In this document: one piece after another, positions 37,575 to 55,087 of the stretch
How the letters are laid out: each line of letters opens with the position of its first letter
Numbering within the stretch: position 1 is the first letter of the stretch
From: a virus
UHGV virus genome: UHGV-0320443
Length of the DNA: 55,576 bases
Direction: 5' to 3' (one strand)
The notes under the pieces: model-generated
What the model was told of the DNA's origin: nothing
The model's input: the letters and a program-made list of their open reading frames with translations, nothing else
Database searches by the model: none
Translations under genes and position numbers: made by a program

Positions 37575-38138
37575 TCAATAACCATTCTTCTGACGATCGA
37601 TATTCTCTTGCCATTTCTTATGATAGGCCTTCGTAATTTCATCTGCGGAAAGATTCATCATCTCGCCTAATTGCATGAAAGATACCCAAGACATTGCTAA
37701 GCATTTCATATCAGCCATAAGCCCTGCGGTCGTAATGAATGAAGTTAGTCGATTTACCATCGAAATAAACAGAGCATTTTTCGCGGAACTATCTCGAAGC
37801 GTGTATTGATCCAAAGGTCTACGAACCTCAACAAGCTCCGCTATTCTATTCGTAATTTTGTATGTGGGTGAACCATCCTCTAACTGATTAAAAATACTTA
37901 GGTAGAAGTGAATACAGTCAACATATTCTTCGACCAAAGTTTCCTTAGGCTCTTGATTCAGAGACCAGACTTTAAACCAACGAGCATCGTTAGCCATTTC
38001 AGCAAGCTCTACAACCAGAGCAGTTACAGTATTGACTAGACGCTGTTCACGCGTCCAGACAATACCATGTTGTTCAATTACCATATCATCTAATGCTCGC
38101 TGCTTTGTACGTAAGTCTTGAATATTAATTTCTAGCAT
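37575..38138 (-). CDS. all-alpha NTP pyrophosphatase (dimeric dUTPase / MazG-like)
   Basis: LVVELAEMANDAR and EEYVDCIHFYLSIF resemble the dUTPase_2 ExxE / ExxDxxHF motifs. Confidence 0.45.
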   Translation of the reverse strand: MLEINIQDLRTKQRALDDMVIEQHGIVWTREQRLVNTVTALVVELAEMANDARWFKVWSLNQEPKETLVEEYVDCIHFYLSIFNQLEDGSPTYKITNRIAELVEVRRPLDQYTLRDSSAKNALFISMVNRLTSFITTAGLMADMKCLAMSWVSFMQLGEMMNLSADEITKAYHKKWQENIDRQKNGY

Positions 38139-38140
38139 AT

Positions 38141-38725
38141 TTAAATTCCTCCACGTTTCAAGTTTGAATATTGTTCCGCCATTGTATTTAAAACTTCAGC
38201 GTTTTCTTTATCGCCCATCTTAGTTAACTGAGCTGCGATTACAGTCATCATATCCCCAATGTGTCCTACTACCATTTTACCTTCAGTGATCATGTTATTG
38301 ATGACTGCCCAATCAAAGTGAACTGTTGGTCCATCATCAATTTGAATGAAAGCTCCTGTGTCATATAATGCAGTGACAACTCCCCCATAGAACTTATCAT
38401 TATGAGCTCCTGATTGGTAAAATAAAGATGTTCCTTCGTCGATCAGATTTTTGTTATCTTTGATTTTATCTGGTCGAGTTGATTTCTTACCTGACCCTTG
38501 AGTACGTTGCTTTCTTTCTTTAGGAGCACTAGCTGGTTGCGACTCTGCCCAATTATCCCACACATCTGGATCAATCATTCGTTTGCCTGTAGTTTCATCT
38601 ACTGGGGCATCCTGTTTACGAATAGCTGCATTTATCTTTTGTGGTGAATTAAATCGAGCAATTCCTGCCTCCTCGTTGTGTTTAGCAAATTGTGCTACCG
38701 TCATTAGTTCTGCCATCTCAATCAT
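38141..38725 (-). CDS. hypothetical protein (194 aa)
   Basis: ORF only. Confidence 0.45.
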   Translation of the reverse strand: MIEMAELMTVAQFAKHNEEAGIARFNSPQKINAAIRKQDAPVDETTGKRMIDPDVWDNWAESQPASAPKERKQRTQGSGKKSTRPDKIKDNKNLIDEGTSLFYQSGAHNDKFYGGVVTALYDTGAFIQIDDGPTVHFDWAVINNMITEGKMVVGHIGDMMTVIAAQLTKMGDKENAEVLNTMAEQYSNLKRGGI

Positions 38726-38791
38726 TCCTCTCTCTTATTTATACTTTAATTATACGCCAGATTGACGGACTTGTCGAGGGCAAAAACCTAA

Positions 38792-39469
38792 TTAATCACC
38801 AAGTTTTTGTTCAATGTTTTGAGACACAGCTAGCATCATATGGGCAGACATTTCAGCAATATCATCTATAGCTCCCTCAGGATTATTAAGATTATTTTGA
38901 AAAGCGAGATCGGTGATAATATCCGCAAGAGCGTGAACAATTCCATCCATATCCATCATGCAAGTAACATTCCGAGCCGCGTTGTAACTGCCTTCTTCTT
39001 CATTTGATTCTGTCATATGAGATTCAAAATAGAGACAGCTGTGACCAACTACGTTTAAGAAGTTCTTTTCAAATCCTGACTCTTCTTCTAGCTCTTCGCG
39101 ATTGTTTTCATAAGCCTGCATTTGTTTATCTGCTTTGGATAGATTGAAGAAATCGTCTACCGAATCAAAGGTACGATCAGGGAATACGCGTAATACAAAG
39201 CCTTTGTGAGATTCTTCCAATACGACATACTCACCTACAGTAGCTGTATGACATTGGTAATTTTTAGTTTCACCATAACCATCTGGATATAACTTGATAT
39301 TAATTACATCCAAATCATCTGGATTTTCTGATACCACATAGTCAGATTTAGAAAAGGCCTGCGATAGTAACATCTTGACATTTTCCAATGACTCCGTAAT
39401 GTTGCTGCCTACATGATGAACCATGTAAGCTTTTGGTCGTGAAGTAATTCGTTCGATATTATATTTCAT
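38792..39469 (-). CDS. hypothetical protein (225 aa)
   Basis: ORF only. Confidence 0.45.
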   Translation of the reverse strand: MKYNIERITSRPKAYMVHHVGSNITESLENVKMLLSQAFSKSDYVVSENPDDLDVINIKLYPDGYGETKNYQCHTATVGEYVVLEESHKGFVLRVFPDRTFDSVDDFFNLSKADKQMQAYENNREELEEESGFEKNFLNVVGHSCLYFESHMTESNEEEGSYNAARNVTCMMDMDGIVHALADIITDLAFQNNLNNPEGAIDDIAEMSAHMMLAVSQNIEQKLGD

Positions 39470-39471
39470 GA

Positions 39472-40464
39472 TTATAAACCTAGCCCTTTCATTTCTTCTA
39501 AAAGTTCTTTCATGACAGGATCACTGTCAGCAACTTTTTCAAACAATGCCATCTTATTAGCTTCTTCATAACGAGCTTGTGCTTTAGCAAACAATTCTTG
39601 CTTCTTAGCAATATTGATCAACAGCTTTTCATTGAAAGCTTGTTGCTCTTCATAAGAGTCGATGCCTACAATGAATTTGGTACCTAATTTTCGATCTTCT
39701 AACTGCTTACTCGCTACCAAACCAATTTCGTAAGTTCTATAAGAATCTACACTAGGTACTACAGCAAACAGCGTCTTTCCAGATTCTAACAAGGCCTTAA
39801 CTTCTGGCTCCATATTGGTAGGTACTACATACTCATATAGTTTTGATCCTGATGATTTTGAAAATTTTACATTGATTGATTTCATGTTTGTTCCTCCTAA
39901 GATATTTTTTATAATATGATCTGGTACTTTAACGCCGTTTGCAGTCAGTTGTTCAACTGCGGATGTCACTTCACTGTCTGTAGGACACTCTTTCTTAATG
40001 AAAGGTGTATCTGGTAGCACTTCATAGCCCAACTCCTTCTTGAGTAGAAATCGATGATAAATATTTTCGTCCAGATAATTATTGACATAGGTGCGACTAA
40101 TATAGGTATAAGGAGTGTTACGCTGCAATATCCTTTCTATCCTTGATCCGAAAACATGATCTAGCTCTCCATAATAGTGTAACACAGCTCCAGCTATCTC
40201 TAAAAGAGCAGTAACTGGTCCTGTATATAAAAACCTTGTTTCTTGATACTTATTAAAACCAGCATCTTCGACCATGTTAGCTAAGCGCTTTCTTTCCTTC
40301 TTTGTAATGTTACTACTAATTGATCTCCACATATACTTATTCAAAAGATCATTGTAATACTTAGCTAGAGGTAACACCTTTGCAGTGAATAGATCATTTA
40401 CAAAGAGGCTAAATGTCGGACTCTCTAGCATCCGATCAGGTGTAGTTTTTTCTTTAGTCATCAC
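39472..40464 (-). CDS. hypothetical protein (330 aa)
   Basis: ORF only. Confidence 0.5.
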   Translation of the reverse strand: MMTKEKTTPDRMLESPTFSLFVNDLFTAKVLPLAKYYNDLLNKYMWRSISSNITKKERKRLANMVEDAGFNKYQETRFLYTGPVTALLEIAGAVLHYYGELDHVFGSRIERILQRNTPYTYISRTYVNNYLDENIYHRFLLKKELGYEVLPDTPFIKKECPTDSEVTSAVEQLTANGVKVPDHIIKNILGGTNMKSINVKFSKSSGSKLYEYVVPTNMEPEVKALLESGKTLFAVVPSVDSYRTYEIGLVASKQLEDRKLGTKFIVGIDSYEEQQAFNEKLLINIAKKQELFAKAQARYEEANKMALFEKVADSDPVMKELLEEMKGLGL

Positions 40465-40763
40465 TCTTCCTCCTTACCAAAATATCTATCTCGCATAGAG
40501 TCCATCATATTAGAAATGTCTTGTTGGACTTCAGCAGCAAAAATGTCATCTGCTTTAACTAGTTCGTTTAATGTCAGATTAGCATTTCTTAAATGAGTAA
40601 TAACTTGTTCGGCAACCTCTTGTGAATTTACATCAACTTCGTCCCGGAACCTACGATAGATAACACCCTCGGCACTTATCAAATGAAATACTTCTCCATG
40701 GTTAGTAATATCAGCAACTTCTACTACCTGGTCAGTTATTTTGTCAATCACTCTCATTGTCAT
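40461..40763 (-). CDS. hypothetical protein (100 aa)
   Basis: ORF only. Confidence 0.4.
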   Translation of the reverse strand: MTMRVIDKITDQVVEVADITNHGEVFHLISAEGVIYRRFRDEVDVNSQEVAEQVITHLRNANLTLNELVKADDIFAAEVQQDISNMMDSMRDRYFGKEEE

Positions 40764-40969
40764 CGTCTTTGCTCCCTTCTTTCTTGTTGAATAATTTCAT
40801 CCTCCTCGGCCACAATAGAAAGAAAATTTCCTACTGCGAAGATACCTATCAAACCAAAAGCAATACGAATATCTACATGTCCCAAATAAGCAATTACAAT
40901 TGAAATTAGTGCTGCCTGCATTGTGTGTTTTGAATCTCGACGAAGTTTCTTTCTTGTCATATGAATCAT
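40760..40969 (-). CDS. small membrane protein
   Basis: Start re-set to MIHM/MTRKK near the RBS GAGAGGAA. TM helix AALISIVIAYL...GLIGIFAVGNFL. Confidence 0.35.
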   Translation of the reverse strand: MIHMTRKKLRRDSKHTMQAALISIVIAYLGHVDIRIAFGLIGIFAVGNFLSIVAEEDEIIQQERREQRR

Positions 40970-41145
40970 TCCTCTCTTTATCTTATACATTAATAATATA
41001 ATAGAATGCTTCTCCAATCCAGGGACAACGCAAAAGAAAAGCATCTTATCCAAACTAATGAATAAGATGCTTCTCAAGAAGGTTAGCATTCTTGAACGAC
41101 CACAAGACGCTACCTTAATTATAACTGGTCACACGTCATTAGTCA

Positions 41146-43713
41146 CTACCAATCTGTATCCATTACTGAGTTTAGATTTCCTGATTTGTCTTCATATAAT
41201 ATATCACCATTGTCAGCTACTTGCATCTCATATAGTTCTCCCCATGAAGGCCCTATTTCAGCATCCGCTAAGAAAGGCACTTCAGTATCTAATAGGACAC
41301 TAGCAGCTACTGGCATATAAGTTTGATGAATAATATATACTAGTCTAATTATTTCAGGATCTTTTTTCACCTCAGCAATTACAGAGTCATGTACCGTATT
41401 GACTAAGCGAGCAACTGTTTCGCCATACATTTCATTTAAGACTTCGATCTCTTCTTCAATACGACATACTGACCAAACCATACAGTCAGACGCTTCAGAT
41501 TGAATTGGGAAGTTAACAGCCTCGTTTTGTAGTCCATTTTTATTAGTATCAGTTACTAAGCCGAATGGACGAATTCTTCCTACAGGTGTTTCAAATACTC
41601 TACCTTCCAATGGATCTTGACGACGCTCTTCCATCCACTTTCTAGTTAATGGTTGTGGAGCATACCAGTCTTCAATCAATTGTTCAGCTTCTTTAATACT
41701 CATGCTATGTTCTGCTGCCAAAGTATAGGCACTGCGTCCATAAGGAATACCGAAGTTTACAGCCTTAGCTCGAACACGTTGTTCTTTAGTAAAGTTCGGT
41801 CCAAATAATTGAATAGAGATCTCATCATGTAAATCGGAACCTTTGTAGTAAACACCTTGTAACCAAGGGTCTCCCCCTTCAACAGACAAGACACGTAGCT
41901 CTGCTTGAGAGTAGTCATGCTGCATCAATACAAATCCATCCTCAGCATCAAAGATATTTTTAATGTCTGATTGTCGAGGAATATTATGGAAGTTCGGATC
42001 CGCAGATGATAATCGGCCTGTCTCTGTTCCATGAAGTTTAAAGGTTGTATGAGCTCGGTCAGTATCTTTATCGATGATCTTGTCAATGCCTAAGATGTAA
42101 GTGGAGTACATTTTCTTATCCTTCGCATAACTCAGTTTAGCATCGATAAATTGGATTGCATTGACATCCGTAAGTCTTTCCTTGTATATATTGAGGGAAT
42201 CAGCATCGGACGAGATCTTCTTCTTTTTGATAATAGGCTTGAGTTGCCAAACGTGAAACAACAAGAACCGAATATGCATGTAACTATTTGGATTAAATGT
42301 TTTCGGTACTTTAGTAGGTCCAGGCTGTTTCTTGCCTGCAGCCCTACCTTTCTTCAACCATTCATCATATTTAGATTTATCAGCCCAACGAGCATATTCA
42401 ACAGGATCCCAACCAGAAAGATTAGCTTTCTCTACTAAGTCCTCAAATAGTTTTTCTAGTCGTGGACCATATTCTGCTTTAAGTCTTTCAATATGCTCAC
42501 GATTGGTGTGGTGTCCATTGATTTCCATATGCATGTAATATTCACTAGCATCCATCAATAGATCTAGCTCTTTCTGAATCTTACGTCCACGCTTAACTTC
42601 TTCATCAAAGAAAGGTTTCATAGCATGATAGACTCTGAAAGTAGCATCTGTATCGACACCTTGATATTTGTACAAGATTGGTCTAGGAATATCAGCAAAG
42701 CTTTCTTTTACATATTTATGAGCGTGATGTTCCCACGGCTCGAAATTACAAAACTCAATAGCTACTTGTTCTAAGTCATGAGTACCTTTACGTACATCTA
42801 AACAATAATGATAAAGCATTGTATCAATGTCTGTTCTAGCACGAATACCATATTGAGCTCGGAAGAACTTATTATCAAACTTACCATTATGATAAAGCCA
42901 GGTAATATTTTTTGACTCGATAGTTGCTTTTAAATCATCATAGATAGATTCATCAAGAATTATTTCTTCAGGAATGACATATGATTCTCCTTCCTTATAA
43001 GTAAAGCCTTGACAAAGTAGTTTATCTTTTTTAAAATCAAATCCTCGAGTCTCAATATCACTCGCGACAATTCTTTTGTCCTTACGTAAAAATTGCAAGA
43101 ATGCTTTGGTCTTTTCTACGGTTGGTAACACGTATACTTTCGTCTGCGGAGCCTCGTTTTGTAAGCCCTTCTCACGTTGGATTAATCGTAAGGCCTTGTC
43201 TAGGTCGAGCAACCACGTTTGAAAAGTATTAGGTGATGTAGCTACATACTTTGGATGGAAAGTTAAAATCGTGTAGGCATTTAAACGACCATCCCATTTC
43301 CATTTACCTCGACCTTCCATAACACCAGCTTTGGTGATAGCTAATGATTTGCCTGCAGCATTCCCTAAAGCAATAATAACTTTTGGTTTAGCTCTACGTA
43401 AAACAGATTCCAACATCGGTCTGTAAGCAGAGATCTGCGAAGCAGTGGGTTCCTTCTCTGTATACATGTCAGTCGCATAAGTATAAAATATTCTTAGGTC
43501 CTTGATTGGCTTATCCAAAACTTCATTTAAATTATGCTGTACCATTTTAATGACTTTCTTGAATAAAACAGCAGCAGAAGCCTGAAAAGGCTCCTGTGCA
43601 TATATTTCTGTTAAAGTAGGTGAATCTCCAACTACAACTACGTCATACTCTTCTTTAGGTAAAACAGTTCTGAGTCGTTGTGCTTTTAGCTCTATTGGAG
43701 GCATGACAACCAC
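41146..43713 (-). CDS. family-A DNA polymerase with an N-terminal UDG-family-4-like domain and a 3'-5' exonuclease domain
   Basis: DYSQAELRVLS is Pol A motif A. 855 aa. The N-terminal roughly 200 aa show UDG-like features (VVGDSP...TFHPKY). Confidence 0.8.
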   Translation of the reverse strand: MVVMPPIELKAQRLRTVLPKEEYDVVVVGDSPTLTEIYAQEPFQASAAVLFKKVIKMVQHNLNEVLDKPIKDLRIFYTYATDMYTEKEPTASQISAYRPMLESVLRRAKPKVIIALGNAAGKSLAITKAGVMEGRGKWKWDGRLNAYTILTFHPKYVATSPNTFQTWLLDLDKALRLIQREKGLQNEAPQTKVYVLPTVEKTKAFLQFLRKDKRIVASDIETRGFDFKKDKLLCQGFTYKEGESYVIPEEIILDESIYDDLKATIESKNITWLYHNGKFDNKFFRAQYGIRARTDIDTMLYHYCLDVRKGTHDLEQVAIEFCNFEPWEHHAHKYVKESFADIPRPILYKYQGVDTDATFRVYHAMKPFFDEEVKRGRKIQKELDLLMDASEYYMHMEINGHHTNREHIERLKAEYGPRLEKLFEDLVEKANLSGWDPVEYARWADKSKYDEWLKKGRAAGKKQPGPTKVPKTFNPNSYMHIRFLLFHVWQLKPIIKKKKISSDADSLNIYKERLTDVNAIQFIDAKLSYAKDKKMYSTYILGIDKIIDKDTDRAHTTFKLHGTETGRLSSADPNFHNIPRQSDIKNIFDAEDGFVLMQHDYSQAELRVLSVEGGDPWLQGVYYKGSDLHDEISIQLFGPNFTKEQRVRAKAVNFGIPYGRSAYTLAAEHSMSIKEAEQLIEDWYAPQPLTRKWMEERRQDPLEGRVFETPVGRIRPFGLVTDTNKNGLQNEAVNFPIQSEASDCMVWSVCRIEEEIEVLNEMYGETVARLVNTVHDSVIAEVKKDPEIIRLVYIIHQTYMPVAASVLLDTEVPFLADAEIGPSWGELYEMQVADNGDILYEDKSGNLNSVMDTDW

Positions 43714-44510
43714 TCCTTGACTCTTTTAATGTTATTGTCTTCCAACTTTTCAAATCGTGATCCGATCTCGTGATGACGATGATCAGCACTACCAGGTGTT
43801 CTTGCTTGCGAATGACGAGGATCTTCTCTGAAGTCACGTCCATGCATTGCTTCCCAGTTTGGAAGAACAGAGTCAACCGAGCGAACATATTCAGCTACGT
43901 CAGGTTCAAATAAGAAGTCCATTGTAGACCAAGCACCTAATAAATGAATTTCTTTCCCAAGAGCTTTAGTTTCTTGTAGTAGATTGTTTTGCAATAATGC
44001 TCGCAGAATGAAATTACGACTATAGCCATCAGAGCCTTTTAAAGTACTAGTCACTTTAGGAATACCAATAGTATCAATTCGTGGTTCTTGTAATAATGTA
44101 GCATAGCAAGATAAGAATTCTTCTACATTAGCTCCTTGGGCAACAGCCATGAATTTATAAGGAGCATCATAATGTTTTTCTAATGCAGCAAAAGTTCTTT
44201 GCAATGACTCTTTTTTACGAGTAAAGGCATCTGGTAAAATAACTTCATCAGCACCAATAATTCCAGCAGCTTCTAATACTAAATCCATGTTCATAGCTTT
44301 CTTACCCATTTCAATCAAGCTATTATCTAAGATAATAAATTCTTTGTTAAAGTCCTTACGAGCTTTATAGGCCTTAGCATAAAATTTATCTTCAGCCAAT
44401 ACTAAGTGAGTAAGCGCCATTTGAATGCCATCAGAGTAATCCAATGATTGTTGCATCTTGAAAGGATCCATATGTCCGAATAAAGGTATGTTAGCGAATT
44501 TGATAGTCAT
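43692..44510 (-). CDS. dpdA: DpdA-like tRNA-guanine-transglycosylase-fold protein (candidate DNA 7-deazaguanine transglycosylase)
   Basis: 272 aa with ILDNSLIEMG and HLLGAW segments that resemble the TGT DSGG and LGxG regions. It sits inside the que gene neighbourhood. Confidence 0.4.
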   Translation of the reverse strand: MTIKFANIPLFGHMDPFKMQQSLDYSDGIQMALTHLVLAEDKFYAKAYKARKDFNKEFIILDNSLIEMGKKAMNMDLVLEAAGIIGADEVILPDAFTRKKESLQRTFAALEKHYDAPYKFMAVAQGANVEEFLSCYATLLQEPRIDTIGIPKVTSTLKGSDGYSRNFILRALLQNNLLQETKALGKEIHLLGAWSTMDFLFEPDVAEYVRSVDSVLPNWEAMHGRDFREDPRHSQARTPGSADHRHHEIGSRFEKLEDNNIKRVKEWLSCLQ

Positions 44511-45066
44511 AGATAGGTTGTCCTCCGGTTTCGATTTGATCTAAAGCAATTGCAAGCATACTTGCTGCAGTCATGTGTGAGCTATTTAGTTGAAGTACAG
44601 GAACTCCAGCGGCTCTTAGAATAGCCATATATTTTCGGTACTGGCCTAAGATATCTTCGATTTGATCAATGCCCACAACTTCTTCTTTCTCAGCAATAAA
44701 GCGTCGAGCAATATCATATACAGTAGCTTCGCAGTAGATAAACAATGGTTTAGTTTCAACTAACCAGTCAAAGATTTCACTAAACTGATCTATCAATTCA
44801 CTTGAAGGAGTACCTGCCATAACATGACTGTAAACTAATTCCTCTGGATAATTGAATCGATCCATTAAGAAACTTTTGTTATGAGAATCACAACGGTAGA
44901 TAATTGCATGAGCTGTATTGATAGCTTCTTCAGTACTTTTAGGTAGATCACCTTTATGATACTTATAATCACTATCTGCTAATGCTGTTGTCAAACCTTT
45001 AATCAATGTCGACTTACCTGTTTTGTCACAACCTGTTACAATAATATTAGAATACTTCTTCTTCAT
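44491..45066 (-). CDS. P-loop nucleotide kinase (thymidylate-kinase / dNMP-kinase-like)
   Basis: IIVTGCDKTGKSTL matches the TMK-type P-loop. Start re-set to MKKKYSN (AGGAGA RBS). Confidence 0.45.
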   Translation of the reverse strand: MKKKYSNIIVTGCDKTGKSTLIKGLTTALADSDYKYHKGDLPKSTEEAINTAHAIIYRCDSHNKSFLMDRFNYPEELVYSHVMAGTPSSELIDQFSEIFDWLVETKPLFIYCEATVYDIARRFIAEKEEVVGIDQIEDILGQYRKYMAILRAAGVPVLQLNSSHMTAASMLAIALDQIETGGQPIYDYQIR

Positions 45067-45367
45067 CTGTGCTATCTCCTGACTTTTCTTCTTCTTTCTC
45101 AAAAGGGACTCCCATAAGGACAATACATTCTCCAGCAAAGTCTATCACTCTCCCAATATATTGCTCGTTTTCTTCATTTAAATTGACTTTGCCTCCAACA
45201 TTATAGCTAGCGTCAGTTGAGATAATACGTACTTCCTCACTAGTTGATCCTTGTAGAATTCTGATTAATTCTTCCCGGTCAAAAACAGTTTCTTTACCAA
45301 ACATATTTTTTCTTGCAGGTCTTTCGATGTTGTAAGTATCTAAGCGTTTTGTAAATTTTTCAATCAA
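45047..45367 (-). CDS. hypothetical protein (106 aa)
   Basis: ORF only. Confidence 0.4.
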   Translation of the reverse strand: MIEKFTKRLDTYNIERPARKNMFGKETVFDREELIRILQGSTSEEVRIISTDASYNVGGKVNLNEENEQYIGRVIDFAGECIVLMGVPFEKEEEKSGDSTDEEEVF

Positions 45368-45647
45368 AACTAACTCCTCCTTCGGTTGATTGTAATCCTT
45401 TAACTAAAGTAGCATACTCAGCCCTGTCTTGATTAAGTTGTTGTTGTAAGGCTTCAGCTAAAATATTTGATCTTAGTTTACCGCCAAAGACAGTATAAAA
45501 ATTCATACCTTTAGGATGTCTTCGCTGCATATGAACTTTGATATCAATATCTTCACTTTTAAATGTTTCATCATCTAAAGCTTTTTCGATATCTTCCATT
45601 CTAATACTTATCTCACGTAATCTTTCCAGAATAGCTAATTGACTCAT
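45360..45647 (-). CDS. hypothetical protein (95 aa)
   Basis: ORF only. Confidence 0.4.
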   Translation of the reverse strand: MSQLAILERLREISIRMEDIEKALDDETFKSEDIDIKVHMQRRHPKGMNFYTVFGGKLRSNILAEALQQQLNQDRAEYATLVKGLQSTEGGVSFD

Positions 45648-46472
45648 TTAATCTGCCTCCTTATCTTTTGCCGTCAACCATTCATCTGCGGAGCCTAATT
45701 CGTTTCGCTCGTAAAGCTCTGCGTGTTTACGATCCCATACATCATCTAGGTTGATATTAAAGTTACGAGCTAGCTTGGTAATGTAGATCATTACATCTAC
45801 TAACTCATCTTGAAGATTGTTCCATTCATGTTCTGACCAGCCATCACGAATTAGTTTCTTACAACTGTTAGCTACTTCACCGGCTTCACCAGAAATACAC
45901 ATGGACATGTAAGCTAGATCTTGCATCTTAGCTCCATCAATTGGTTGCTCTGGATTGTAATCAGCTAGCTTGTCCATCAAGGTAACATCATTCATCATGT
46001 CAGTAAAAGTTAATTGATTAGGACGGTGTAAGTCTACAAACTTTTCAGGCTTTTGTGAAAAAGCTCTTATGTGTTGGAAGCCAGCAAAATCTAAATAGTT
46101 ACGATAGAATTCACCAACTTGATCTGGATTAATTCGTTCGTCAAAATAATCAGCCAAGCTAAAGGTAGGTGCTTCAATTGTTTCTCTAGCGTCCGATAAA
46201 GTCTTTGACCAGTCCCAAATTAAATATGCTGCATAGCCTTGTAAGGTAGTAAAGATAGCGTACGCTGATTGTTTTGTCTCTTCGATCGCTTTCATAGACA
46301 TTGTACTGAATCGATACCCTAAAGTACGTTGAATTAGTACAGGATAGTTACGAGGATTAATTCTCATTGAAATAGTTACACTATCCAATAATAGGCCTTC
46401 AGTTACCATTTCCTCGTACAGTCCTTTAATTCCTAAGTTTCGCAATCGATCTGACCATTGGTTTTGTTTCAT
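45648..46472 (-). CDS. MazG-like NTP pyrophosphohydrolase with an N-terminal extension
   Basis: The C-terminal GEAGEVANSCKKL...EHEWNNLQDELVDVMIYI matches the MazG E..E...E..D core. Confidence 0.5.
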   Translation of the reverse strand: MKQNQWSDRLRNLGIKGLYEEMVTEGLLLDSVTISMRINPRNYPVLIQRTLGYRFSTMSMKAIEETKQSAYAIFTTLQGYAAYLIWDWSKTLSDARETIEAPTFSLADYFDERINPDQVGEFYRNYLDFAGFQHIRAFSQKPEKFVDLHRPNQLTFTDMMNDVTLMDKLADYNPEQPIDGAKMQDLAYMSMCISGEAGEVANSCKKLIRDGWSEHEWNNLQDELVDVMIYITKLARNFNINLDDVWDRKHAELYERNELGSADEWLTAKDKEAD

Positions 46473-46494: not shown

Positions 46495-46527
46495 AGAATA
46501 AAATAAGTATAGCTGGTTGCTATACTT
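46495..46527 (-). terminator. hairpin plus T-run after folE (operon terminator)
   Basis: AAGTATAGC-aacca-GCTATACTT (9-bp perfect stem) followed by TATTTTATTCTT on the minus strand. Confidence 0.4.
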
Positions 46528-46562
46528 ATATTATATGTTATTTAAATGATTTTGAATAGGTA

Positions 46563-47273
46563 CTACTTCATACTTAATAATGAAAGTAATTCCTGTTTTG
46601 CTGAAGCGTTCGCTGCAAAGACTCCTCTAACTGCAGATGTTGTAGTTGTTGCTCCACGTTTATGTGCGCCTCGGCCACACATGCAGTAATGCTCTGCGTT
46701 AATAATAACGGCAGATCCGATTGGTTGTAATACATCTTCAATGGCGTCAATGACTTCCGTTGTAAGTTTTTCTTGAACTTGGAATCGTTTTGCATATCCA
46801 TCCAATGTTCTAGCGAATTTGCTAAGCCCAGCAATTTTATTTGAAGGAATGTAGGCAATGCTAGCTGTTCCGAAAAACGGAGCAAAGTGGTGCTCACACA
46901 TAGAGTTGAATGGAATGTCTTTGATAAGGACAATGTCTCGGCCGTTAACGTTAGCTTCAAAATCTTTGAGCAAGTGTTGCTTAGGGTCTTCGCCATATCC
47001 CTCTGTGTACTCAAGGAAGGCTTTAAGCACTCGGAAGGGCGTCTCTTGTAATCCATCACGTCTAAAATCATCTCCACATATAGAAATTAAAGCATGCAAT
47101 CCTTGTAAGGCAACATCAATAGGATTATCATGATCTTTATCAGCACGCATTTCTGATACCGTAGGAAAATCATAAGCAGCCTCTTTAGGTAATCTTGGGC
47201 GGATTAATGCTTCCAGTTTTTCCTCTTGTTCCTTAGTTAATAAATTGTCTTTAAAAATATTCTCTACTGTCAT
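46563..47273 (-). CDS. folE: GTP cyclohydrolase I
   Basis: MCEHHFAPFFG active-site motif. Start re-set to MTVENIF (GAGGAG RBS). Confidence 0.8.
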   Translation of the reverse strand: MTVENIFKDNLLTKEQEEKLEALIRPRLPKEAAYDFPTVSEMRADKDHDNPIDVALQGLHALISICGDDFRRDGLQETPFRVLKAFLEYTEGYGEDPKQHLLKDFEANVNGRDIVLIKDIPFNSMCEHHFAPFFGTASIAYIPSNKIAGLSKFARTLDGYAKRFQVQEKLTTEVIDAIEDVLQPIGSAVIINAEHYCMCGRGAHKRGATTTTSAVRGVFAANASAKQELLSLLSMK

Positions 47274-47277
47274 GTAA

Positions 47278-48123
47278 CTATACTCCTCTCGCATTTGCAT
47301 ATACTAGTGTGTGTAATTGTGGTAATGGACGTACGTTGTTAAAGTCGGGATCTTCTAGAACTTTATCCCATAGCCAATGTAGCTTCTCTAATAACCGTTC
47401 CGATACATCACCTGCGGAAGTAGAGTCTTCGTTTCCTACTGATACGTACATTGGTTGAGTTCCGCACTTATCTTCATAACGTTTCACTACTGTCCGAGCA
47501 TATTCGAAATCTTCATCATTAAAGATAACTACTTTCATAGTCCAGTTAACGTTATTTTCATTCAAGCGATCGACAATTTTGTCAAGTACTCGCCAATTAG
47601 TTTTCATTAGTGAACTAGGTGGTTTAGGACTCATTACAAAGTCATCAATGTGTACGAACCAATCCTGCCAGTTCACTCCTTGTGTTTCGACAGAGAATTT
47701 GAATTCATGTTCTTGTTTCATAATCCGAATAAATTCAGCCATCTCTTCGCCTACTAGAGAAGGGTTTCCTCCAGTCAGAGTGATATGCTTACAATTAGTT
47801 CCTCCACTAGAAAGAGCTAATACTTTTTGTTCTAGTTCACGTGGAGTGATCCATTCAGGTTCTTGAGATCCATCCCAAGTAAATTTAGAGTCACACCATG
47901 AACAACTATATTGGCAGAAGGCGGTACGAACAAAAATAGTCTTTTGTCCGATAACCATACCTTCACCTTGAATCGTAGGACCAAAACATTCCATGTAAGG
48001 AATTAAACCTTTACGTTTTTCCATCTTTAATCGATCAGGTCTATAATTTTTAGGACTTTCATTATAGGCTTCGATCTTTTCTTTCAACTTTGGGTTGCTA
48101 ATGTTTTGAGTACTAGGTTTCAT
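47278..48123 (-). CDS. queE: 7-carboxy-7-deazaguanine synthase (radical SAM)
   Basis: FGPTIQGEG...AFCQYSCSWCDSKFTW shows the CxxxCxxC cluster and QueE N-terminal signature. Confidence 0.8.
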   Translation of the reverse strand: MKPSTQNISNPKLKEKIEAYNESPKNYRPDRLKMEKRKGLIPYMECFGPTIQGEGMVIGQKTIFVRTAFCQYSCSWCDSKFTWDGSQEPEWITPRELEQKVLALSSGGTNCKHITLTGGNPSLVGEEMAEFIRIMKQEHEFKFSVETQGVNWQDWFVHIDDFVMSPKPPSSLMKTNWRVLDKIVDRLNENNVNWTMKVVIFNDEDFEYARTVVKRYEDKCGTQPMYVSVGNEDSTSAGDVSERLLEKLHWLWDKVLEDPDFNNVRPLPQLHTLVYANARGV

Positions 48124-48132
48124 AATGTCCTC

Positions 48133-48690
48133 CTAATCAATCATGACTTCATCTGGATCATATTCAATTCCTTTGTGTTTGTGGATAGCATAAACCACAA
48201 GAGCACCAATACCTTGAAGAACTGTTTTAACAATAATTTGTCCGATGATAGCATTAGGTACTTGATCCCAAGTTAAAACACCCATTCCTAAAGGTGATAG
48301 ACCTATCAAGACAAAGATAGAACTGTCAATTGTTCCACCAAACAAACCACTAACAAAGATTCGTACGTACATTGGTTGCTTCAATCGAGTATAAACTTCG
48401 GTGTCCATTGATTCGGAAAAGATGAATGAGATCGCAGAAGCGAAGACCACCCATAAAGTATCCCCTAAGAAAGCAGAAACAATAGCGCTCAAGATCAACG
48501 CAGCTACAATAATTGAATAAGTCTTCTTACGTCCAAATTTGTTTTGAACTAAGTCACGAAGGATAAAAGTAAATCCGATAAAGAAAGTTCCAAACGGTAC
48601 AAAGAAAGGCCCGAATGCTACTGGTGCGAAAGTTGCTGTTACTACGTTTGCTGCTGTGATCCCTAATAAGTATAAAAGTATTCTAATCAT
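48133..48690 (-). CDS. yhhQ: YhhQ-family (DUF165) membrane transporter, putative 7-deazaguanine precursor importer
   Basis: 185-aa multi-TM protein with the YhhQ-like start ...ANVVTATFAPVAFGPFFVPFGTFF...ILRDLVQNKFG. Embedded in the que operon with 4-nt overlaps. Confidence 0.55.
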   Translation of the reverse strand: MIRILLYLLGITAANVVTATFAPVAFGPFFVPFGTFFIGFTFILRDLVQNKFGRKKTYSIIVAALILSAIVSAFLGDTLWVVFASAISFIFSESMDTEVYTRLKQPMYVRIFVSGLFGGTIDSSIFVLIGLSPLGMGVLTWDQVPNAIIGQIIVKTVLQGIGALVVYAIHKHKGIEYDPDEVMID

Positions 48691-49214
48691 TTTTGTTCTC
48701 CATTCGTAGTTAGATTGAAATTAGTATCCATAAAGTTTTCGCCATCAAAGAACACAACATTTTCGAACATGTTTTCACTGATAGATAAAATACTTTTGAA
48801 CATGTAGTTGCGATAGTCGTCACGATGAATCATAGCAGAACCAGTAGGCGTCTCCCATAAAGCAACTCGCCATACAGGTAGATCATGTTTATGACACCAC
48901 CACATAATGAACAAGGCCATATTTTCCGCAGTCGTCCTAAAGCCAAAGCGAACAAATTTTGTATCGATAGATTCCATAACTGGTTCATTGCCTTGAGCTA
49001 AGAATGCATGATCTAAATGATCTAGCAATGGTTTGATCTTTTCTTTAACATCAGTAAAGTCCATTACCATACCACTTGACGACCCACGATGCTCTAATTC
49101 GCCTTTCATTGATACTTGTAATTTGTAAGTATGGCCATGCACATTAGCACATTTACCATTATGTCCTACTAGTTGGTGAGCTGAATCAAAGGTAAATTCT
49201 TTTGTGATTATCAT
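48687..49214 (-). CDS. queD: 6-carboxy-5,6,7,8-tetrahydropterin synthase
   Basis: TKEFTFDSAHQL...CANVHGHTYKL contains the QueD/PTPS motifs. The start overlaps the queC stop (TAATG). Confidence 0.8.
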   Translation of the reverse strand: MIITKEFTFDSAHQLVGHNGKCANVHGHTYKLQVSMKGELEHRGSSSGMVMDFTDVKEKIKPLLDHLDHAFLAQGNEPVMESIDTKFVRFGFRTTAENMALFIMWWCHKHDLPVWRVALWETPTGSAMIHRDDYRNYMFKSILSISENMFENVVFFDGENFMDTNFNLTTNGEQK

Positions 49215-49954
49215 TAGAATAATCCTCCTTGATAAGCATAAGATTGACAACCTGCCCAATCAATATAGTTTTCATATTTAACTGGATCTACAATATGATT
49301 GTATTTGAAAGCATTAACACGATCAATACATGTACCACAATGACCACATTGATCTTCATGCCCTTCGTAACAAGAACGAGTCAAGTGTAAAGGAGCGCCT
49401 AATTCTAATCCTAAAGTAACTACACCAGCTTTGTTTTTCATTAATAGAGGAGCATCAAGATTTACTTTATGTCCTGAGCCTGCAAAGATCGCACGATCCA
49501 TTGCTTTGTAAAATTCTGGAGTACAGTCCGGATAAGCTGAACCAGCTGCATCATCTGAATGAGCTCCATAAACAACTTTGCTAGCACCAATGCTATATGC
49601 ATATGCTGCGGCTTGACTTAACATTAAACCGTTTCGGAAAGGAACATATGAATCAACAGTACCTTCACCATTTTCTTCAATAATTTCTGCATAGCTCTTA
49701 TGAGATAATTCTCCATTGCCTTTAAGCAAAGTGCTATCACTCTTTGAAAACAGCTGCGGATCTACTGTTAGTACTACGTGCTCCACGCCATATTCTTTTG
49801 CTACGTTTTTTGCATTCTCGATCTCATTGTCATGTTTTTGACCATAAGAAAAAGACAGTGCGTGGACATTATCAGGTCCTACTTTCTTTACACTGTCTGC
49901 CAAACACACCGTGGAGTCCAAGCCACCACTTAATAATACTACTACTTTTGTCAT
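49214..49954 (-). CDS. queC: 7-cyano-7-deazaguanine synthase
   Basis: VVLLSGGLDSTVCLA PP-loop and C-terminal CGHCGTC zinc motif. Start re-set to MTKVVV (GAGGA RBS). Confidence 0.85.
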   Translation of the reverse strand: MTKVVVLLSGGLDSTVCLADSVKKVGPDNVHALSFSYGQKHDNEIENAKNVAKEYGVEHVVLTVDPQLFSKSDSTLLKGNGELSHKSYAEIIEENGEGTVDSYVPFRNGLMLSQAAAYAYSIGASKVVYGAHSDDAAGSAYPDCTPEFYKAMDRAIFAGSGHKVNLDAPLLMKNKAGVVTLGLELGAPLHLTRSCYEGHEDQCGHCGTCIDRVNAFKYNHIVDPVKYENYIDWAGCQSYAYQGGLF

Positions 49955-50581
49955 ATTCCTTTTCCTCATTTCATTTTTTATTTTATCCTGGTGGTTTGTT
50001 TCACCAGTCTAACTGGACCGGAGAGGAATCGCACCTCTCAATTAACTAAAGTAATATATGAGCGCTCACTACATTACCGTCGATCCAAAAAGAAAAACTA
50101 AATAGAAACCGTTACCTGAGAGAGATGTTGGGAGCTCATACCGCGAATTTGTGTTTTGTGATGAGTATGAGACTTATTTTTTAGAAAAAACTCAGGAGAG
50201 CTCCCTTGAGCGGATTTATTACACGGGACTAAAGCTCTACCGTGATCAGTCTTTCCTGACAGCCAATAACTACTGCACACTTGTACTCAATGTGATGCGG
50301 TGAGCAAGTTATACGAGCTTGCTCCATTGATGCAAATGCGACATACAACTTTATTTATTATTCGTACAACAAATGACTTTTCCCCAACGCGCTTGAGTTG
50401 ATTAATCATTTATTTTGTAGAGAGTTTTCCCAGTAACGATTTCATATTTAGTTTTCAATGTTGCGCACTATGATTGAAAAAGTTGAATTTCATGTATTTG
50501 ATTGAGACAGAAAGGCAAAGTTAGTCAACCAGAGTGTTACGCGAACTTAGTTATTTGATGGCCATCATTTAACTATACTTA
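49955..50581 (-). ncRNA. long structured 5' leader / candidate regulatory RNA of the que operon
   Basis: About 600 nt between a good promoter and queC with no credible ORF, GC above background and several stable hairpins (for example 50021-50039, 49988-50007, 50130-50205). Confidence 0.3.
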
Positions 50582-50625: not shown

Positions 50626-53595
50626 TTATTTCATTTTAATGATTTGTAGAATCTCGTCCTCACGCTTCGACCGGAACTCCCGCAGTTGTTCATTCCATTT
50701 ATGAGTGACTCGATACACACTAGAGTTACCACCAGTATGAACGTAAATGATTTGCAAGTCAATCATGATCTTAATAGTTGCCTTAGCTTCTTCTGTATCA
50801 ATATTAAGTGTTTCTTCCAATGTCTTAGAAGTAAAGCTACCTTTGATAGAATCAACAATATTGACAACTTCTGAATTGATATGGAAGAAACGGAAAATTT
50901 TCTTCTGATCGTCTCCAGTAACAATATGACGACGTTGTTCGTCTTTAGCCATTGCTCGATAGCCTAATGTAGGATTGCTATAAATCTTTTCTAAGAAATT
51001 AGCTACGAATTCTACATGCTCCGATTTGACAATGACTTTTTCATATGTCTCATCAGTACTAAACAATCTTGCAGCACAGGCTACAGCAAGTCGACTTAAT
51101 TTAACTTTCATTGAGTTACGTTCTACAATAGATAAAGATGACCCATCATATTCGCGACCCATATTGGAAGCTTCTTTTAATAATCGACTATAAGCTTCAG
51201 CAGTAAATTCTACCTTATCATTTTCAGGTGTCAAGTAACCTTTAGCATTTCTTGACCAAGCCCACATAATTAATCGTTGACATAAGTCCTTAGTATATTT
51301 AACTGGTCCTTTAGGTAAATGAGATGTGTCTCTATTAATGATAGATTCATCGACCTCATCACGTCCAACTCCCATAGCAAAATCAAAACGAGCGATATCC
51401 TCAGACCGTCCTACTAAATCGATAATTGCTTTAGCACCGTATGGATAGTCCTTCATGTGTTTAGCACCATTACCTACACGAGGGTTAGAAATCCAAATTG
51501 ATCTTGTCCTAGCATATGCCTGACCAATCTTAGCTTTATTGATTTCTACGATACCACGAGAACGCATAGAAGACATAGCACCAAAGTCATCTTTAGATAA
51601 TCCAGATGCTTCATCTAAAATTAATAACTTACGATCGTTCTGTGGAAACTTACCCCAGGTGATTGTCCATTGATCATTACCCATTTGTTGTACAGTTCCT
51701 GTTAAACCTGTCAAACGAGTGTTCTCAACTTCAATCATATCTCCAGCTTGATAATATTCAGCCATGTACTCAGCTGTCTCAGATTTACCAGTACGTGGAT
51801 CTCCAATAGTTAACAATTCTAACCAGCCACGAGCCTGCAATTTATTATCTAAATGGAAACGCAATACAGAATGATATACCAAATCATAAGCAATGACTAA
51901 TTCTTTCCTGTCCCAGATACGAGTGTAAAGTTCTAAGTCGCTAGCAATTTCATACATCTTGTCTTCCACAGTTTGATCATCTGCGGGTTGAAAGATCTTG
52001 AGCTCTTCGATTTCTTCGGGTGTAGGTTTAAAGGCATCCATCTCTTCACGTATCGGTGTAGCCTTGGTAACTAGGTAAGCTACGTAACCCATGTCAGGAT
52101 CTGATGTACGCAATGCTTGCAATTTGTACACTCGGTTAGAAGTAACTGACTCCCTTGGCTTGTCATAAACATGGTAAGCTCTTTGTACATCAACTGAATC
52201 ATCACTAATGGTTCTGGAGAATTTTTCTACACTAGGACCAATATGCAATACTTCAATGTTGTAAGACTCAATTTCTTCAAACTTGTACATGTTATTATTC
52301 TTAGGTACACCTAAAGCTTCTTTCAATAACATTTCTCGTTTGTCATCGCTGACACCGGCAAATTTCATTGTGTCTCGAGTGATCTCAAAATTAATATCAA
52401 AGCCTTCTTTTAATTGCTTTTCAGTTAGACTACGTAGTACACATTGTCTACCAGGTACTAATTCAGGGTCATAATAATCAACAGACACTCGTAGTACTTT
52501 TGGTGCAGTAAAGATATTAGAACTTCGCCCAATAATCATAGCTTCGATCTCAATAGCTTTGTTATTGAATGCTGGATTGTAAGTTGCCTCACTAAGGCTT
52601 GTAGGAATAAATTCTGATTCTGCTAATGTACCTTTGTTGAGTTCTTTTAAATCTTCTTCAACAGTAGGGACAAATAATTTAGACTTAGTAAGTACTTCAT
52701 CATAGAAGTCATCTTTAGTTTTTCCTAGCTCAACAATAAAGTCAGTAAAATCTATATGTGGTTGAGGGTACTCACAAATCCGAACTTCGGCAGCTACCTC
52801 ACGTAAGTTTAATGCCTCACGTTCAGCACCTGATCTACCAGCATCGTCACCGTCGTAACAAATAAATACTTTCTTATCTCTAAAGTAGTGATCCATACAA
52901 CCACCCTTAGGCCATTGTCCAGCACCACCAGTTTGTGTGATTGAAGGAATGCCTAATTGTCTAGCTAATGCTGCATCGGTCTCACCTTCGAATATAACGA
53001 CCCAACCGACATTAATGAAGTCATGATCTAAAGGCCACAGATAAGATTTCGTATATGCATTCTTAGTATTAATAAATTTTGCTTTCTTAGCACCCATGCG
53101 ATACTTTCTTATATTAATAAGTTTTCCATCTAATGAATAAACAGGTATTGTATAACGCTGTGTGTCCGGATCATATCCTATTTGTCTTTGCTTGATTGTG
53201 TTTAAAGTAAATCCGCGTTTATTCATAAATTTTTCTAGGAATTTAGGGTGTTGAAGTAATGTTTGATGATATTCTTCAGCTATCGATTCATCCATAGGAA
53301 ACGCGAGTTTTCCTTTGCGTTCGAATTGCTGTTGTAGCTTAATTGATTCACCAAGAGGGAAATCATACCATTCTACTAACCAAGCAGCGATATCACCTCC
53401 GCCACCATTTTGTCCTGCATCACAGGCTTTACAGTTCCATAATCCGGTAGATAAATTTATATGCATTGAAGGGGTAGTGTCTCCGTGAAAAGGACAACAA
53501 ACTGCTACTTCTTCGTCTCCATCCATCGGCATCGGAAGTCCTGGTATATAGTCCTGATAAAATCGTCTATACTTGAACTTTGTTTCTTCTGCCAT
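50626..53595 (-). CDS. bifunctional DNA primase (zinc-finger + TOPRIM) / helicase
   Basis: CCPFHGDTTPS...CKAC (CHC2 zinc finger), VVIFEGETDA...FICYDGDDAGRSG (TOPRIM) and the C-terminal P-loop GDPRTGKS. 989 aa. Confidence 0.8.
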   Translation of the reverse strand: MAEETKFKYRRFYQDYIPGLPMPMDGDEEVAVCCPFHGDTTPSMHINLSTGLWNCKACDAGQNGGGGDIAAWLVEWYDFPLGESIKLQQQFERKGKLAFPMDESIAEEYHQTLLQHPKFLEKFMNKRGFTLNTIKQRQIGYDPDTQRYTIPVYSLDGKLINIRKYRMGAKKAKFINTKNAYTKSYLWPLDHDFINVGWVVIFEGETDAALARQLGIPSITQTGGAGQWPKGGCMDHYFRDKKVFICYDGDDAGRSGAEREALNLREVAAEVRICEYPQPHIDFTDFIVELGKTKDDFYDEVLTKSKLFVPTVEEDLKELNKGTLAESEFIPTSLSEATYNPAFNNKAIEIEAMIIGRSSNIFTAPKVLRVSVDYYDPELVPGRQCVLRSLTEKQLKEGFDINFEITRDTMKFAGVSDDKREMLLKEALGVPKNNNMYKFEEIESYNIEVLHIGPSVEKFSRTISDDSVDVQRAYHVYDKPRESVTSNRVYKLQALRTSDPDMGYVAYLVTKATPIREEMDAFKPTPEEIEELKIFQPADDQTVEDKMYEIASDLELYTRIWDRKELVIAYDLVYHSVLRFHLDNKLQARGWLELLTIGDPRTGKSETAEYMAEYYQAGDMIEVENTRLTGLTGTVQQMGNDQWTITWGKFPQNDRKLLILDEASGLSKDDFGAMSSMRSRGIVEINKAKIGQAYARTRSIWISNPRVGNGAKHMKDYPYGAKAIIDLVGRSEDIARFDFAMGVGRDEVDESIINRDTSHLPKGPVKYTKDLCQRLIMWAWSRNAKGYLTPENDKVEFTAEAYSRLLKEASNMGREYDGSSLSIVERNSMKVKLSRLAVACAARLFSTDETYEKVIVKSEHVEFVANFLEKIYSNPTLGYRAMAKDEQRRHIVTGDDQKKIFRFFHINSEVVNIVDSIKGSFTSKTLEETLNIDTEEAKATIKIMIDLQIIYVHTGGNSSVYRVTHKWNEQLREFRSKREDEILQIIKMK

Positions 53596-54577: not shown

Positions 54578-55087
54578 TTATTCCACTTCAAATGGTAAAT
54601 CTGCTTCTAAGCTAGGTGCATCAGCTAAAGAAGTATCTTCTCCGCTTGGTGCTTGTTCAGCTGTTGGATCGAAATCTTCATCAGCTAACTTAGCATTCTT
54701 AACTACGTTTTGTAGTTCGTCTTGATAAGTCCGAGTTCCCAAAGTAATTTTAACTACTTTACCGATCAAGTCTGATGGTGAGAATTCAAAACCAGGTGCG
54801 TTCAATTCTTCTGTTGTCCAAATGTCAGTAGCTACTAATAAACCTTTCAAGCTAAACAAAGCTTTTGGTGAATAAGAGTAGTTAGAAAACACACGACGAT
54901 TGCGAGCGCTGTTACCATTTTTGTCATGACCATCTAAAATGTTAAATTGAATTGACAAATAAGGATATTGCTTACCTTCTTTTTCCTCTGCTTCGAAAAT
55001 TGATGCGTGATATGTTCCTGCTGGCAATGCCTCAAAACTCATATCCTCTACTTCTGAAAAATTAAAACCCATTGCGACCATGTACAA
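54578..55087 (-). CDS. hypothetical protein (possible ssDNA-binding or annealing-associated protein partnering the Sak4-like ATPase)
   Basis: 169-aa ORF with an acidic C-terminal tail (DLPFEVE), positioned by synteny only. Confidence 0.35.
   Translation of the reverse strand: MYMVAMGFNFSEVEDMSFEALPAGTYHASIFEAEEKEGKQYPYLSIQFNILDGHDKNGNSARNRRVFSNYSYSPKALFSLKGLLVATDIWTTEELNAPGFEFSPSDLIGKVVKITLGTRTYQDELQNVVKNAKLADEDFDPTAEQAPSGEDTSLADAPSLEADLPFEVE

Follow-up and report, generated by a model that had tools for sequence, protein, structure and literature searches.

Phages that carry 7-deazaguanines in their DNA raise the question of when the base enters: through the nucleotide pool, before the DNA is made, or into the finished polymer. 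The matter was debated in 2019 and closed in 2023 on one argument, namely that every such phage has a DpdA homologue. We return to it with the virus genome UHGV-0320443, a stretch of 55,576 nt (hereafter the window), and with the six open reading frames (ORFs) at its positions 41146-46472. They encode a 274-aa MazG-like protein, two small proteins of 95 and 106 aa, a P-loop protein, a 272-aa protein and an 855-aa family-A DNA polymerase. Very probably the interval makes up the distal half of a single transcription unit, and this unit is a 7-deazaguanine DNA-replacement cluster of the DpdA3 type, with the 272-aa protein as its transglycosylase-fold member. Enzymes of free-nucleotide metabolism habitually flank DpdA3 or are fused to it, which is not so for DpdA1; the published analysis does not record this feature. 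On this basis we tentatively prefer that the base is installed before polymerisation.

A DpdA3-family protein next to the polymerase gene

The 272-aa protein has no Pfam match, and none of its 65 homologues is annotated. The positions invariant in the family are H35, D62-N63-S64, E67, D94, P151, H189-L-L-G192 and D213. The three aspartates (D62 in LDNS, D94 in LPD, D213 in RSVD) are unchanged across 42 sequences, and their order and spacing, compared along the sequence, resemble those of the catalytic Asp95, Asp130 and Asp256 of DpdA (PMC10164549). The family member P0046 matched Cellulophaga phage phiST by tblastn (5e-11) exactly at CGPG_00065, the gene that Cui et al. 2023 named DpdA3 (PMC10516641). 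When the 42-sequence family alignment was compared with CGPG_00065 by hhalign, a probability of 99.7% was obtained (E 1.9e-25, 204 columns), and the hidden Markov model of the family matched phiST and MA9V-3 at 8e-33. The predicted structure is a (beta/alpha)8 barrel of the TGT/DpdA type, and the known structure closest to it is that of DpdA, the DNA preQ0 insertase. Searches of the PDB sequences with the protein, by phmmer and with profiles, returned nothing meaningful, and a comparison of the family with one E. coli Tgt sequence by hhalign likewise failed. The link to TGT and DpdA is visible only through structure prediction and through the DpdA3 of phiST.

No TGT or DpdA domain was found by a Pfam scan of 30 window ORFs, and no second DpdA3-like ORF by the family profile run over all six frames of the window. 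An initial annotation had placed PolA between folE and a DpdA-like gene. In fact dpdA3 lies between the kinase gene and polA, and the 330-aa ORF beyond polA, tried as that DpdA-like gene, was rejected, being unrelated to the DpdA3 family.

DpdA3 is a bare barrel of 225-270 aa, with about 55 residues after the putative nucleophile. Two features proved uninformative for telling a DNA substrate from a small molecule: the isoelectric point, which is similar in the DpdA1 of phage 9g, and the TGT zinc motif CxCxxC...H, which is also missing there. A profile search of 1.84 billion representative proteins returned 4,216 DpdA3-like clusters at E <= 1e-10, so that the question of mechanism concerns a large family.

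Nucleotide enzymes around DpdA3

The gene identities proposed initially for the neighbours of dpdA3 in the window largely stood up, in contrast to the layout. The "TMK-like" kinase carries the PHROG label thymidylate kinase (8.9e-11), and the P-loop (GxDxxGKST) and the DRF motif are invariant in its family. A profile built from seven homologues retrieves 67 proteins, many of them with Pfam PF02223. The fold is of the mononucleotide/nucleoside-kinase type and not of the polynucleotide-kinase type, with a P-loop, a DR(Y/F/H) motif and an NMP-kinase fold; the enzyme belongs to a family active on free nucleosides or nucleotides. One of its members, P0074 (324 aa), is fused to a MazG domain. Also, in a phage that lacks que genes (L065:6001-6956), the order kinase, MazG-like, thymidylate-synthase homologue, PolB begins with a remote homologue of the kinase, and such an arrangement is the classic setting for pre-replicative pyrimidine replacement. 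The kinase-MazG pair may be a cassette that accompanies different dNMP-modifying enzymes.

For the MazG-like pyrophosphatase the assignment holds in part. The protein matches the PHROG family phrog_229, 'MazG-like pyrophosphatase' (1.8e-13), and falls short of the Pfam PF03819 threshold (only residues 189-250 match, at 18.4 bits, where the cut-off is 22). It shows the acidic motifs ...SGEAGEVAN...QDELVDVMIY... (GEAGE...DELVD, of the ExxE...ExxD type), whose acidic residues we take to be the MazG metal ligands. The catalytic domain spans approximately residues 168-266, and only these C-terminal ~100 residues support the MazG call. For the N-terminal ~165 aa, to which no family could be assigned, jackhmmer finds only L003. 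Full-length homologues occupy the same position in L003, L006 and L066. No match to PF18909 or MazZ was found for the window protein.

The family-A polymerase with a UDG-like N-terminal domain was borne out by three Pfam domains above their cut-offs (PF00476, 225 bits; PF01612, 63.6 bits; PF03167, 46.7 bits). The UDG-like domain (residues 1-170; window 43200-43704) has the motifs GDSPT and HPKYV, where motifs like GEAPG and HPSPLS are expected in family-4 UDGs. Four members of the kinase family of ~300 aa (P0081, P0088, P0094, P0104) are fused to a UDG-superfamily domain, which in the window is found on PolA instead.

The neighbourhood was then compared across 43 DpdA3-like loci, the window and 42 related ones, forming 30 lineages at 60% identity. 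The loci came from the GenBank phages BSP7, Youna2, phiST and MA9V-3, from assemblies with homologues and from 30 IMG/VR contigs, and neighbours were scored with profiles seeded from Pfam- or PHROG-tagged genes. Among the three experimentally characterised DpdA3 phages, the sample covers the neighbourhood of phiST; immuto_2-6A lies outside it, as does Campylobacter phage CP220 (177-kb genome) beyond its first 50 kb, in which no ORF matched the DpdA3 profile. The DpdA3-like genes of the 43 loci accompany que genes or the transporter (FolE in 22, QueC in 29 and Vut_1 in 19, within 5 kb), as in the window, where queC, queD, yhhQ, queE and folE are immediately upstream.

Bacillus phage BSP7, Weizmannia phage Youna2, phiST and numerous phages from metagenomes all have a string kinase-DpdA3-PolA, in most cases together with a MazG-type gene. 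Within 60 bp of dpdA3, 19 of the 30 lineages have a kinase-type gene and 17 a DNA polymerase gene; an NTP pyrophosphatase is found within 5 kb in 22, and in 24 some nucleotide-metabolism gene abuts dpdA3. The adjacent kinase-type genes fall into four sequence groups: the TMK-like type of the window (kinA), an AAA_18 type (kinB), a second TMK-like type (phrog_2107) on marine T4-like contigs (kinC), and short DUF3310 proteins with the PHROG label 'nucleotide kinase' after T7 gp1.7. The kinB group includes CGPG_00066 of phiST, for which the 2023 study gave neither a function nor homologues in any other deazaguanine phage (PMC10516641). This gene (L009:7520-7999), immediately upstream of DpdA3, encodes a P-loop kinase (AAA_18, 29.8 bits, above the cut-off), and the same pair occurs in Chryseobacterium phage MA9V-3 (L010:8528-8998).

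The pyrophosphatases are likewise of several types, namely MazG, dUTPase_2, PRA-PH and dCTP-deaminase/dUTPase-like. In two loci (L022:7449-7961, L036:7531-7935) the gene abutting dpdA3 carries PF18909 (70-73 bits), the N-terminal domain of dATP/dGTP diphosphohydrolases of the MazZ type, and a separate MazG gene lies just upstream. At least three other proteins (P0022/L005:10001-11125, L029:7992-9128 and P0176) join the DpdA3-like barrel to a C-terminal nucleoside 2-deoxyribosyltransferase domain (PF05014) and keep the catalytic Glu motif of this enzyme, DSGTMAEIG (DSGTxxE). L003 and L013 carry the deoxyribosyltransferase as a gene of its own near dpdA3. None of these deoxyribosyltransferase loci has folE, queD or queE; they have the YhhQ transporter instead. 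The L007 (9535-15056) and L037 clusters contain a phosphoribosyltransferase (PF00156), which could convert a free base, or released guanine, to a nucleotide. Both are marine T4-like, with the order queD, dpdA3, TMK-like kinase, queC, queE, unknown ORF, phosphoribosyltransferase, folE, PRA-PH-type pyrophosphatase, PolB.

As a control we used phage 9g and 17 related DpdA1 loci, which are arranged folE-dpdA-(clamp)-polymerase. None of the 17 had an adjacent kinase or deoxyribosyltransferase, and MazG was within 5 kb in only two control loci. Since 9g DpdA1 is also near a polymerase, proximity to the polymerase does not separate the DpdA types; the nucleotide-enzyme neighbours do distinguish DpdA3 from DpdA1 loci.

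Base exchange before or after polymerisation

DpdA3, described in 2023, is the sole DpdA type tied to complete replacement of G, in CP220, phiST and immuto_2-6A: the three DpdA3 phages tested all reach 100%, and other DpdA types at most about 30% (PMC10516641). Insertion of 7-deazaguanine by a DpdA3 is still a putative activity, as the E. coli test system of its discoverers gave none; the cytoplasm of CP220-infected cells contains the ADG nucleoside (PMC10516641).

We tentatively propose that DpdA3 is not a DNA-modifying enzyme but exchanges the base of dGMP or dGTP, within a pathway of hydrolysis, exchange, rephosphorylation and polymerisation in which all steps are inferred. The MazG-like enzyme would cut dGTP to dGMP, which would remove the competing canonical triphosphate and provide the substrate. 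DpdA3, by the double-displacement chemistry of TGT with Asp213 as nucleophile and Asp62 as acid/base, would put the 7-deazaguanine base in the place of guanine, its substrate being a free deoxynucleotide and not DNA. The TMK-like kinase would convert the modified dNMP to the diphosphate, a host nucleoside-diphosphate kinase would produce the triphosphate, and the phage PolA would polymerise it. Such a pathway would follow the logic of T4 (dCTPase, dCMP hydroxymethylase, dNMP kinase) or of the Z-genome phages (MazZ, PurZ), with a TGT-fold enzyme as base changer. What argues for it is the set of nucleotide-enzyme neighbours and fusions, the minimal size of DpdA3, the complete and context-free replacement, and the failed E. 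coli tests. Also, the other complete base replacements that we know of in phage DNA (hydroxymethylcytosine, hmC; hydroxymethyluracil, hmU; deoxyuridine, dU; and Z) all pass through the pool of deoxynucleoside triphosphates (dNTPs).

A nucleotide-level route had already been suggested in the initial annotation, and this interpretation is only partly supported. Its premise does not hold: a DpdA-family transglycosylase sits inside the module, not beyond it, so that the route is not one independent of DpdA. The idea is not undescribed either, as work of 2019 on Campylobacter phages had already considered a route by way of a modified dGTP (PMC6884629). The resemblance to Z-genome clusters holds for the logic and fails for the genes, neither PurZ (a PurA homologue) nor DatZ (an HD dATPase) being present in the 30 window ORFs scanned. 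The interpretation withstood the refuting test named there: relatives do keep the kinase-DpdA3-PolA string together with the que genes, though not every component is always present.

It is in these incomplete cases that the proposal meets part of the evidence weighing against it. The clade L038-L044 (e.g., L040:6374-7021) has only queC-folE-queD-exonuclease-queE-dpdA3-polA, the exonuclease being of the RNase_T/DnaQ type; no kinase or NTPase is near dpdA3 in this clade or in L020, and BSP7 and Youna2 have no MazG at the folE-to-kinase position. Adjacency may be largely shared by descent in a few lineages, which would leave ~7 independent associations, not 24. The DUF3310 proteins span only part of the T7 gp1.7-type profiles, which makes their kinase activity putative, and the PF18909 domain is accessory rather than catalytic. 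Also, the DpdA1 control is small and phylogenetically narrow, and it was from DpdA3 loci that the neighbour profiles were derived. Phage replication modules often contain kinases and MazG proteins, and to our knowledge the characterised TGT/DpdA enzymes act on polynucleotides, or on protein (Cap10), and none on a free nucleotide. The substrate specificities of the MazG-like protein, the kinase and PolA are not readable from sequence, and determinants of a preference of the MazG-like enzyme for dGTP could not be assigned. Finally, those who discovered DpdA3 regard it as a transglycosylase that works on DNA after replication (PMC10516641).

Their conclusion, over which we slightly favour exchange in the nucleotide pool, remains a strong competitor, somewhat less probable in our judgment. 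PolA would then copy with dGTP, and DpdA3 would swap guanine in the DNA polymer, perhaps at the fork beside PolA. The MazG-like protein and the TMK-like kinase would serve dNTP supply, pool sanitation or the recycling of guanine to GTP for FolE, and a phosphoribosyltransferase with a kinase would also suit such recycling. The membership of DpdA3 in the DpdA/TGT superfamily, with a DNA insertase as its best structural match and three invariant aspartates ordered as in DpdA (PMC10164549), points in this direction, as do the clade L038-L044 and the folE-dpdA-(clamp)-polymerase neighbourhood shared by 9g, whose DpdA1 acts on DNA and was shown to insert preQ0 (PMC10516641). Nevertheless, exchange in the polymer leaves unexplained the at least four unrelated types of nucleoside or nucleotide enzyme next to dpdA3, and the fusion of DpdA3 with a deoxyribosyltransferase. 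Characterised relatives of the latter act on free nucleosides or nucleotides, and we know of no precedent for complete, context-free replacement through base flipping at every G. The ~55 residues past the putative nucleophile of DpdA3 also stand against the 128-residue Ins8 that makes up much of the DNA-binding surface of bacterial DpdA (PMC10164549), and the lack of activity in the E. coli test system (PMC10516641) counts against this reading as well.

Both activities could be combined if most of the modified base came through the nucleotide pool, by a deoxyribosyltransferase-like or other enzyme and the kinase, while DpdA3 acted on DNA only for residual G misincorporated from leftover dGTP. 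This would reconcile the DNA-enzyme ancestry of DpdA3 with its nucleotide-enzyme neighbourhood and with the 100% replacement (PMC10516641), and the deoxyribosyltransferase fusions do unite the two activities in one protein. We consider it improbable, as it is more complex and without direct support, and the scans of the window show no deoxyribosyltransferase or other maker of modified nucleotides besides DpdA3. Far less probable still is that the que genes only raise the queuosine-tRNA of the host, with an unmodified phage DNA and an unrelated TIM-barrel function for the 272-aa protein, as was once proposed for preQ0-gene phages without a recognised DpdA (PMC6884629). The window has a DpdA3 homologue, apparently translationally coupled to polA, all tested DpdA3 phages have modified DNA (PMC10516641), and dpdA3-like genes keep company with que genes or the transporter throughout the 43 loci.

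The transcription unit and its relatives

All long ORFs from 36 to 54 kb of the window are on the minus strand (Table 1). In the sense of transcription the order is primase/MCM-type helicase, queC, queD, yhhQ, queE, folE, mazG-like, two small ORFs, kinase, dpdA3, polA. Ribosome-binding sites point to an ATG as the start of each of the last three genes; the kinase gene overlaps dpdA3 by 20 nt and dpdA3 overlaps polA by 13 nt. Together with the hairpin and T tract that follow polA, a likely end of the transcription unit, these overlaps make the genes look co-transcribed and translationally coupled. The palindromic hairpin that lies between folE and the mazG-like gene, in a gap of 90 nt, is a possible attenuator or terminator; as an attenuator, it could set the genes for base synthesis apart from those running from mazG to polA. 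The ORFs of 95 and 106 aa showed no significant similarity to their positional counterparts in relatives, nor these to each other.

Table 1. Features of the UHGV-0320443 window (coordinates on the 55,576-nt stretch), in the sense of transcription
Feature	Position	Strand	Remarks
Primase/MCM-type helicase gene	50626-53595	-	precedes queC
QueC (7-cyano-7-deazaguanine synthase family)	49214..49969	-	PF06508 1.7e-58; first gene of the cluster after primase/MCM helicase
QueD (6-carboxytetrahydropterin synthase, PTPS family)	48687..49259	-	PF01242 2.3e-30
YhhQ/Vut_1-type queuosine-precursor transporter	48133..48690	-	PF02592 4.2e-17; TIGR00697 2.1e-13, 50.6 bits, marginally under the 50.95-bit cut-off
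QueE (7-carboxy-7-deazaguanine synthase, radical SAM)	47278..48123	-	TIGR03365 2.8e-84, above cut-off
FolE (GTP cyclohydrolase I)	46563..47300	-	PF01227 1.8e-60; NF006826 1.6e-61
Palindromic hairpin, perfect 11-bp stem	46503..46529	.	terminator-like scan; folE/mazG-like gap
MazG-like all-alpha NTP pyrophosphatase	45648..46472	-	274 aa; phrog_229; acidic motifs
95-aa ORF, lineage-specific	45360..45647	-	no Pfam/PHROG match; no homologue in other loci
106-aa ORF, lineage-specific	45047..45367	-	TTG start; no Pfam/PHROG match; no significant homologue
Thymidylate-kinase-like P-loop nucleotide kinase	44491..45066	-	191 aa; ATG 45066 after AGGAGA, not the upstream TTG
DpdA3-family transglycosylase-fold protein	43692..44510	-	272 aa; minimal TIM barrel; ATG 44510
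Family-A DNA polymerase with N-terminal UDG-like and 3'-5' exonuclease domains	41146..43704	-	likely ATG 43704 after AAGGAG
Hairpin, 17-bp stem, then T tract	41036..41075	-	terminator-like scan; directly after polA
Second all-alpha NTP pyrophosphatase (dimeric dUTPase_2 family)	37575..38138	-	PF08761 4.4e-32; 3 kb downstream of polA

The dUTPase_2 gene, a possible accessory to the module, gives the phage, with the MazG-like gene, two enzymes of the all-alpha NTP pyrophosphatase superfamily. The five ORFs between it and polA (109, 100, 330, 225 and 194 aa; 38141-41089) had no significant Pfam match. The hairpin after polA falls inside the nominal 109-aa ORF (40760-41089), which may be no gene or may start further downstream; the 100-aa ORF matches phrog_21268, of unknown function (2.3e-9), and the 330-aa ORF has no homologue in the GenBank phages. 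The window looks like a complete ~55.6-kb siphovirus genome, close in size to that of BSP7 (55,455 bp), and also encodes an Amidase_3 lysin and SPP1-type tail genes. Genes of a replication module are found at both of its ends (a PDDEXK nuclease at 651-1739, DUF669 at 54578-55087, an HTH protein and the primase), so that the sequence appears circularly permuted compared with the contiguous modules of L011-L013. A megablast of the interval against GenBank phages gave no match, and a 99%-identical DpdA3 protein is present on a 45-kb metagenomic contig (P0001).

The closest isolated phages are the BSP7 group (MH707430) and Youna2 (OM293949). They share with the window primase/MCM, queC, queD, queE, folE, small ORFs, kinase, a DpdA3 homologue (33-37% identity) and PolA; their records label the DpdA3 and kinase genes as hypothetical or name them inconsistently. 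Their PolA proteins, of ~670 aa, are shorter than the PolA of the window (852 aa), and each is followed by a separate small gene annotated as polymerase.

In phiST, DpdA3 has the genes of the CDG pathway on one side and the polymerase on the other, and a MazG/dUTPase-like gene accompanies it (PMC10516641). The order is comparable there too: queD-queE-folE, MazG-like, (DpdL), P-loop kinase CGPG_00066, DpdA3, small ORF, polymerase, the position of the last being taken from that study. The two DpdA3 proteins are homologous, as hhalign indicated. The window differs in its TMK-like kinase, where that of phiST is of the AAA_18 type, in the 165-aa N-terminal extension of its MazG, in its UDG-exo-PolA polymerase and in its resemblance to siphoviruses of Firmicutes. 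It also has QueC and the YhhQ transporter and is without DpdL, so that the predicted base is preQ0 or ADG and not 7-deazaguanine. The genes queC, queD, yhhQ, queE and folE make or import preQ0 or its amide ADG, and by analogy with phiST, CP220 and immuto_2-6A we infer that the virion DNA would have most or all G replaced by dPreQ0 or dADG.

With DpdA1 and DpdA2 (9g, CAjan, VH7D) and bacterial DpdA/DpdB/DpdC, the system shares superfamily, fold, preQ0 synthesis genes and a position near the polymerase. Those DpdA enzymes differ in that DNA is their demonstrated substrate, with no more than about 30% of G replaced and some of it in a sequence context, and in their greater length where known (317 aa in 9g, 413 aa in bacterial DpdA with its DNA-binding Ins8). 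The hydroxymethylcytosine pathway of T4 consists of gp56 dCTPase, gp42 dCMP hydroxymethylase and gp1 dNMP kinase. With it and with the Z-genome system (MazZ, PurZ, DatZ, DpoZ) the likeness is confined to the logic that the gene content suggests, in which an NTP pyrophosphatase is combined with a base-changing enzyme, with a dNMP kinase and with a polymerase of the phage's own. The base-changing enzymes are not homologous, being of the TGT fold in the window and of thymidylate-synthase or PurA folds there. The likeness to Z-genome phages, in which MazZ supplies dGMP to PurZ (PMC8342488), extends to the MazZ-type and MazG genes that abut DpdA3 in some loci.

In the literature readable for this analysis we found no record of the link between DpdA3 and nucleotide enzymes: our searches returned no paper tying DpdA3 to kinases or MazG, and none demonstrating a nucleotide-level route. 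These neighbourhood data thus reopen, in a directly testable form, the question of when the base enters. If the nucleotide route is not real, the cluster described here is that of one more DpdA3 phage. If it is, no earlier case would be known of 7-deazaguanine DNA made by a pre-replicative route, or of a TGT-fold enzyme with a free nucleotide as substrate. The route would then concern a family of more than 4,000 protein clusters and would account for the fact that 100% replacement is reached by DpdA3 phages alone. It would also provide an enzymatic way to 7-deaza-dGTP analogues and to fully substituted DNA, which is refractory to many restriction enzymes and perhaps also to some CRISPR nucleases, and it would change how the genomes of such phages should be sequenced and annotated.

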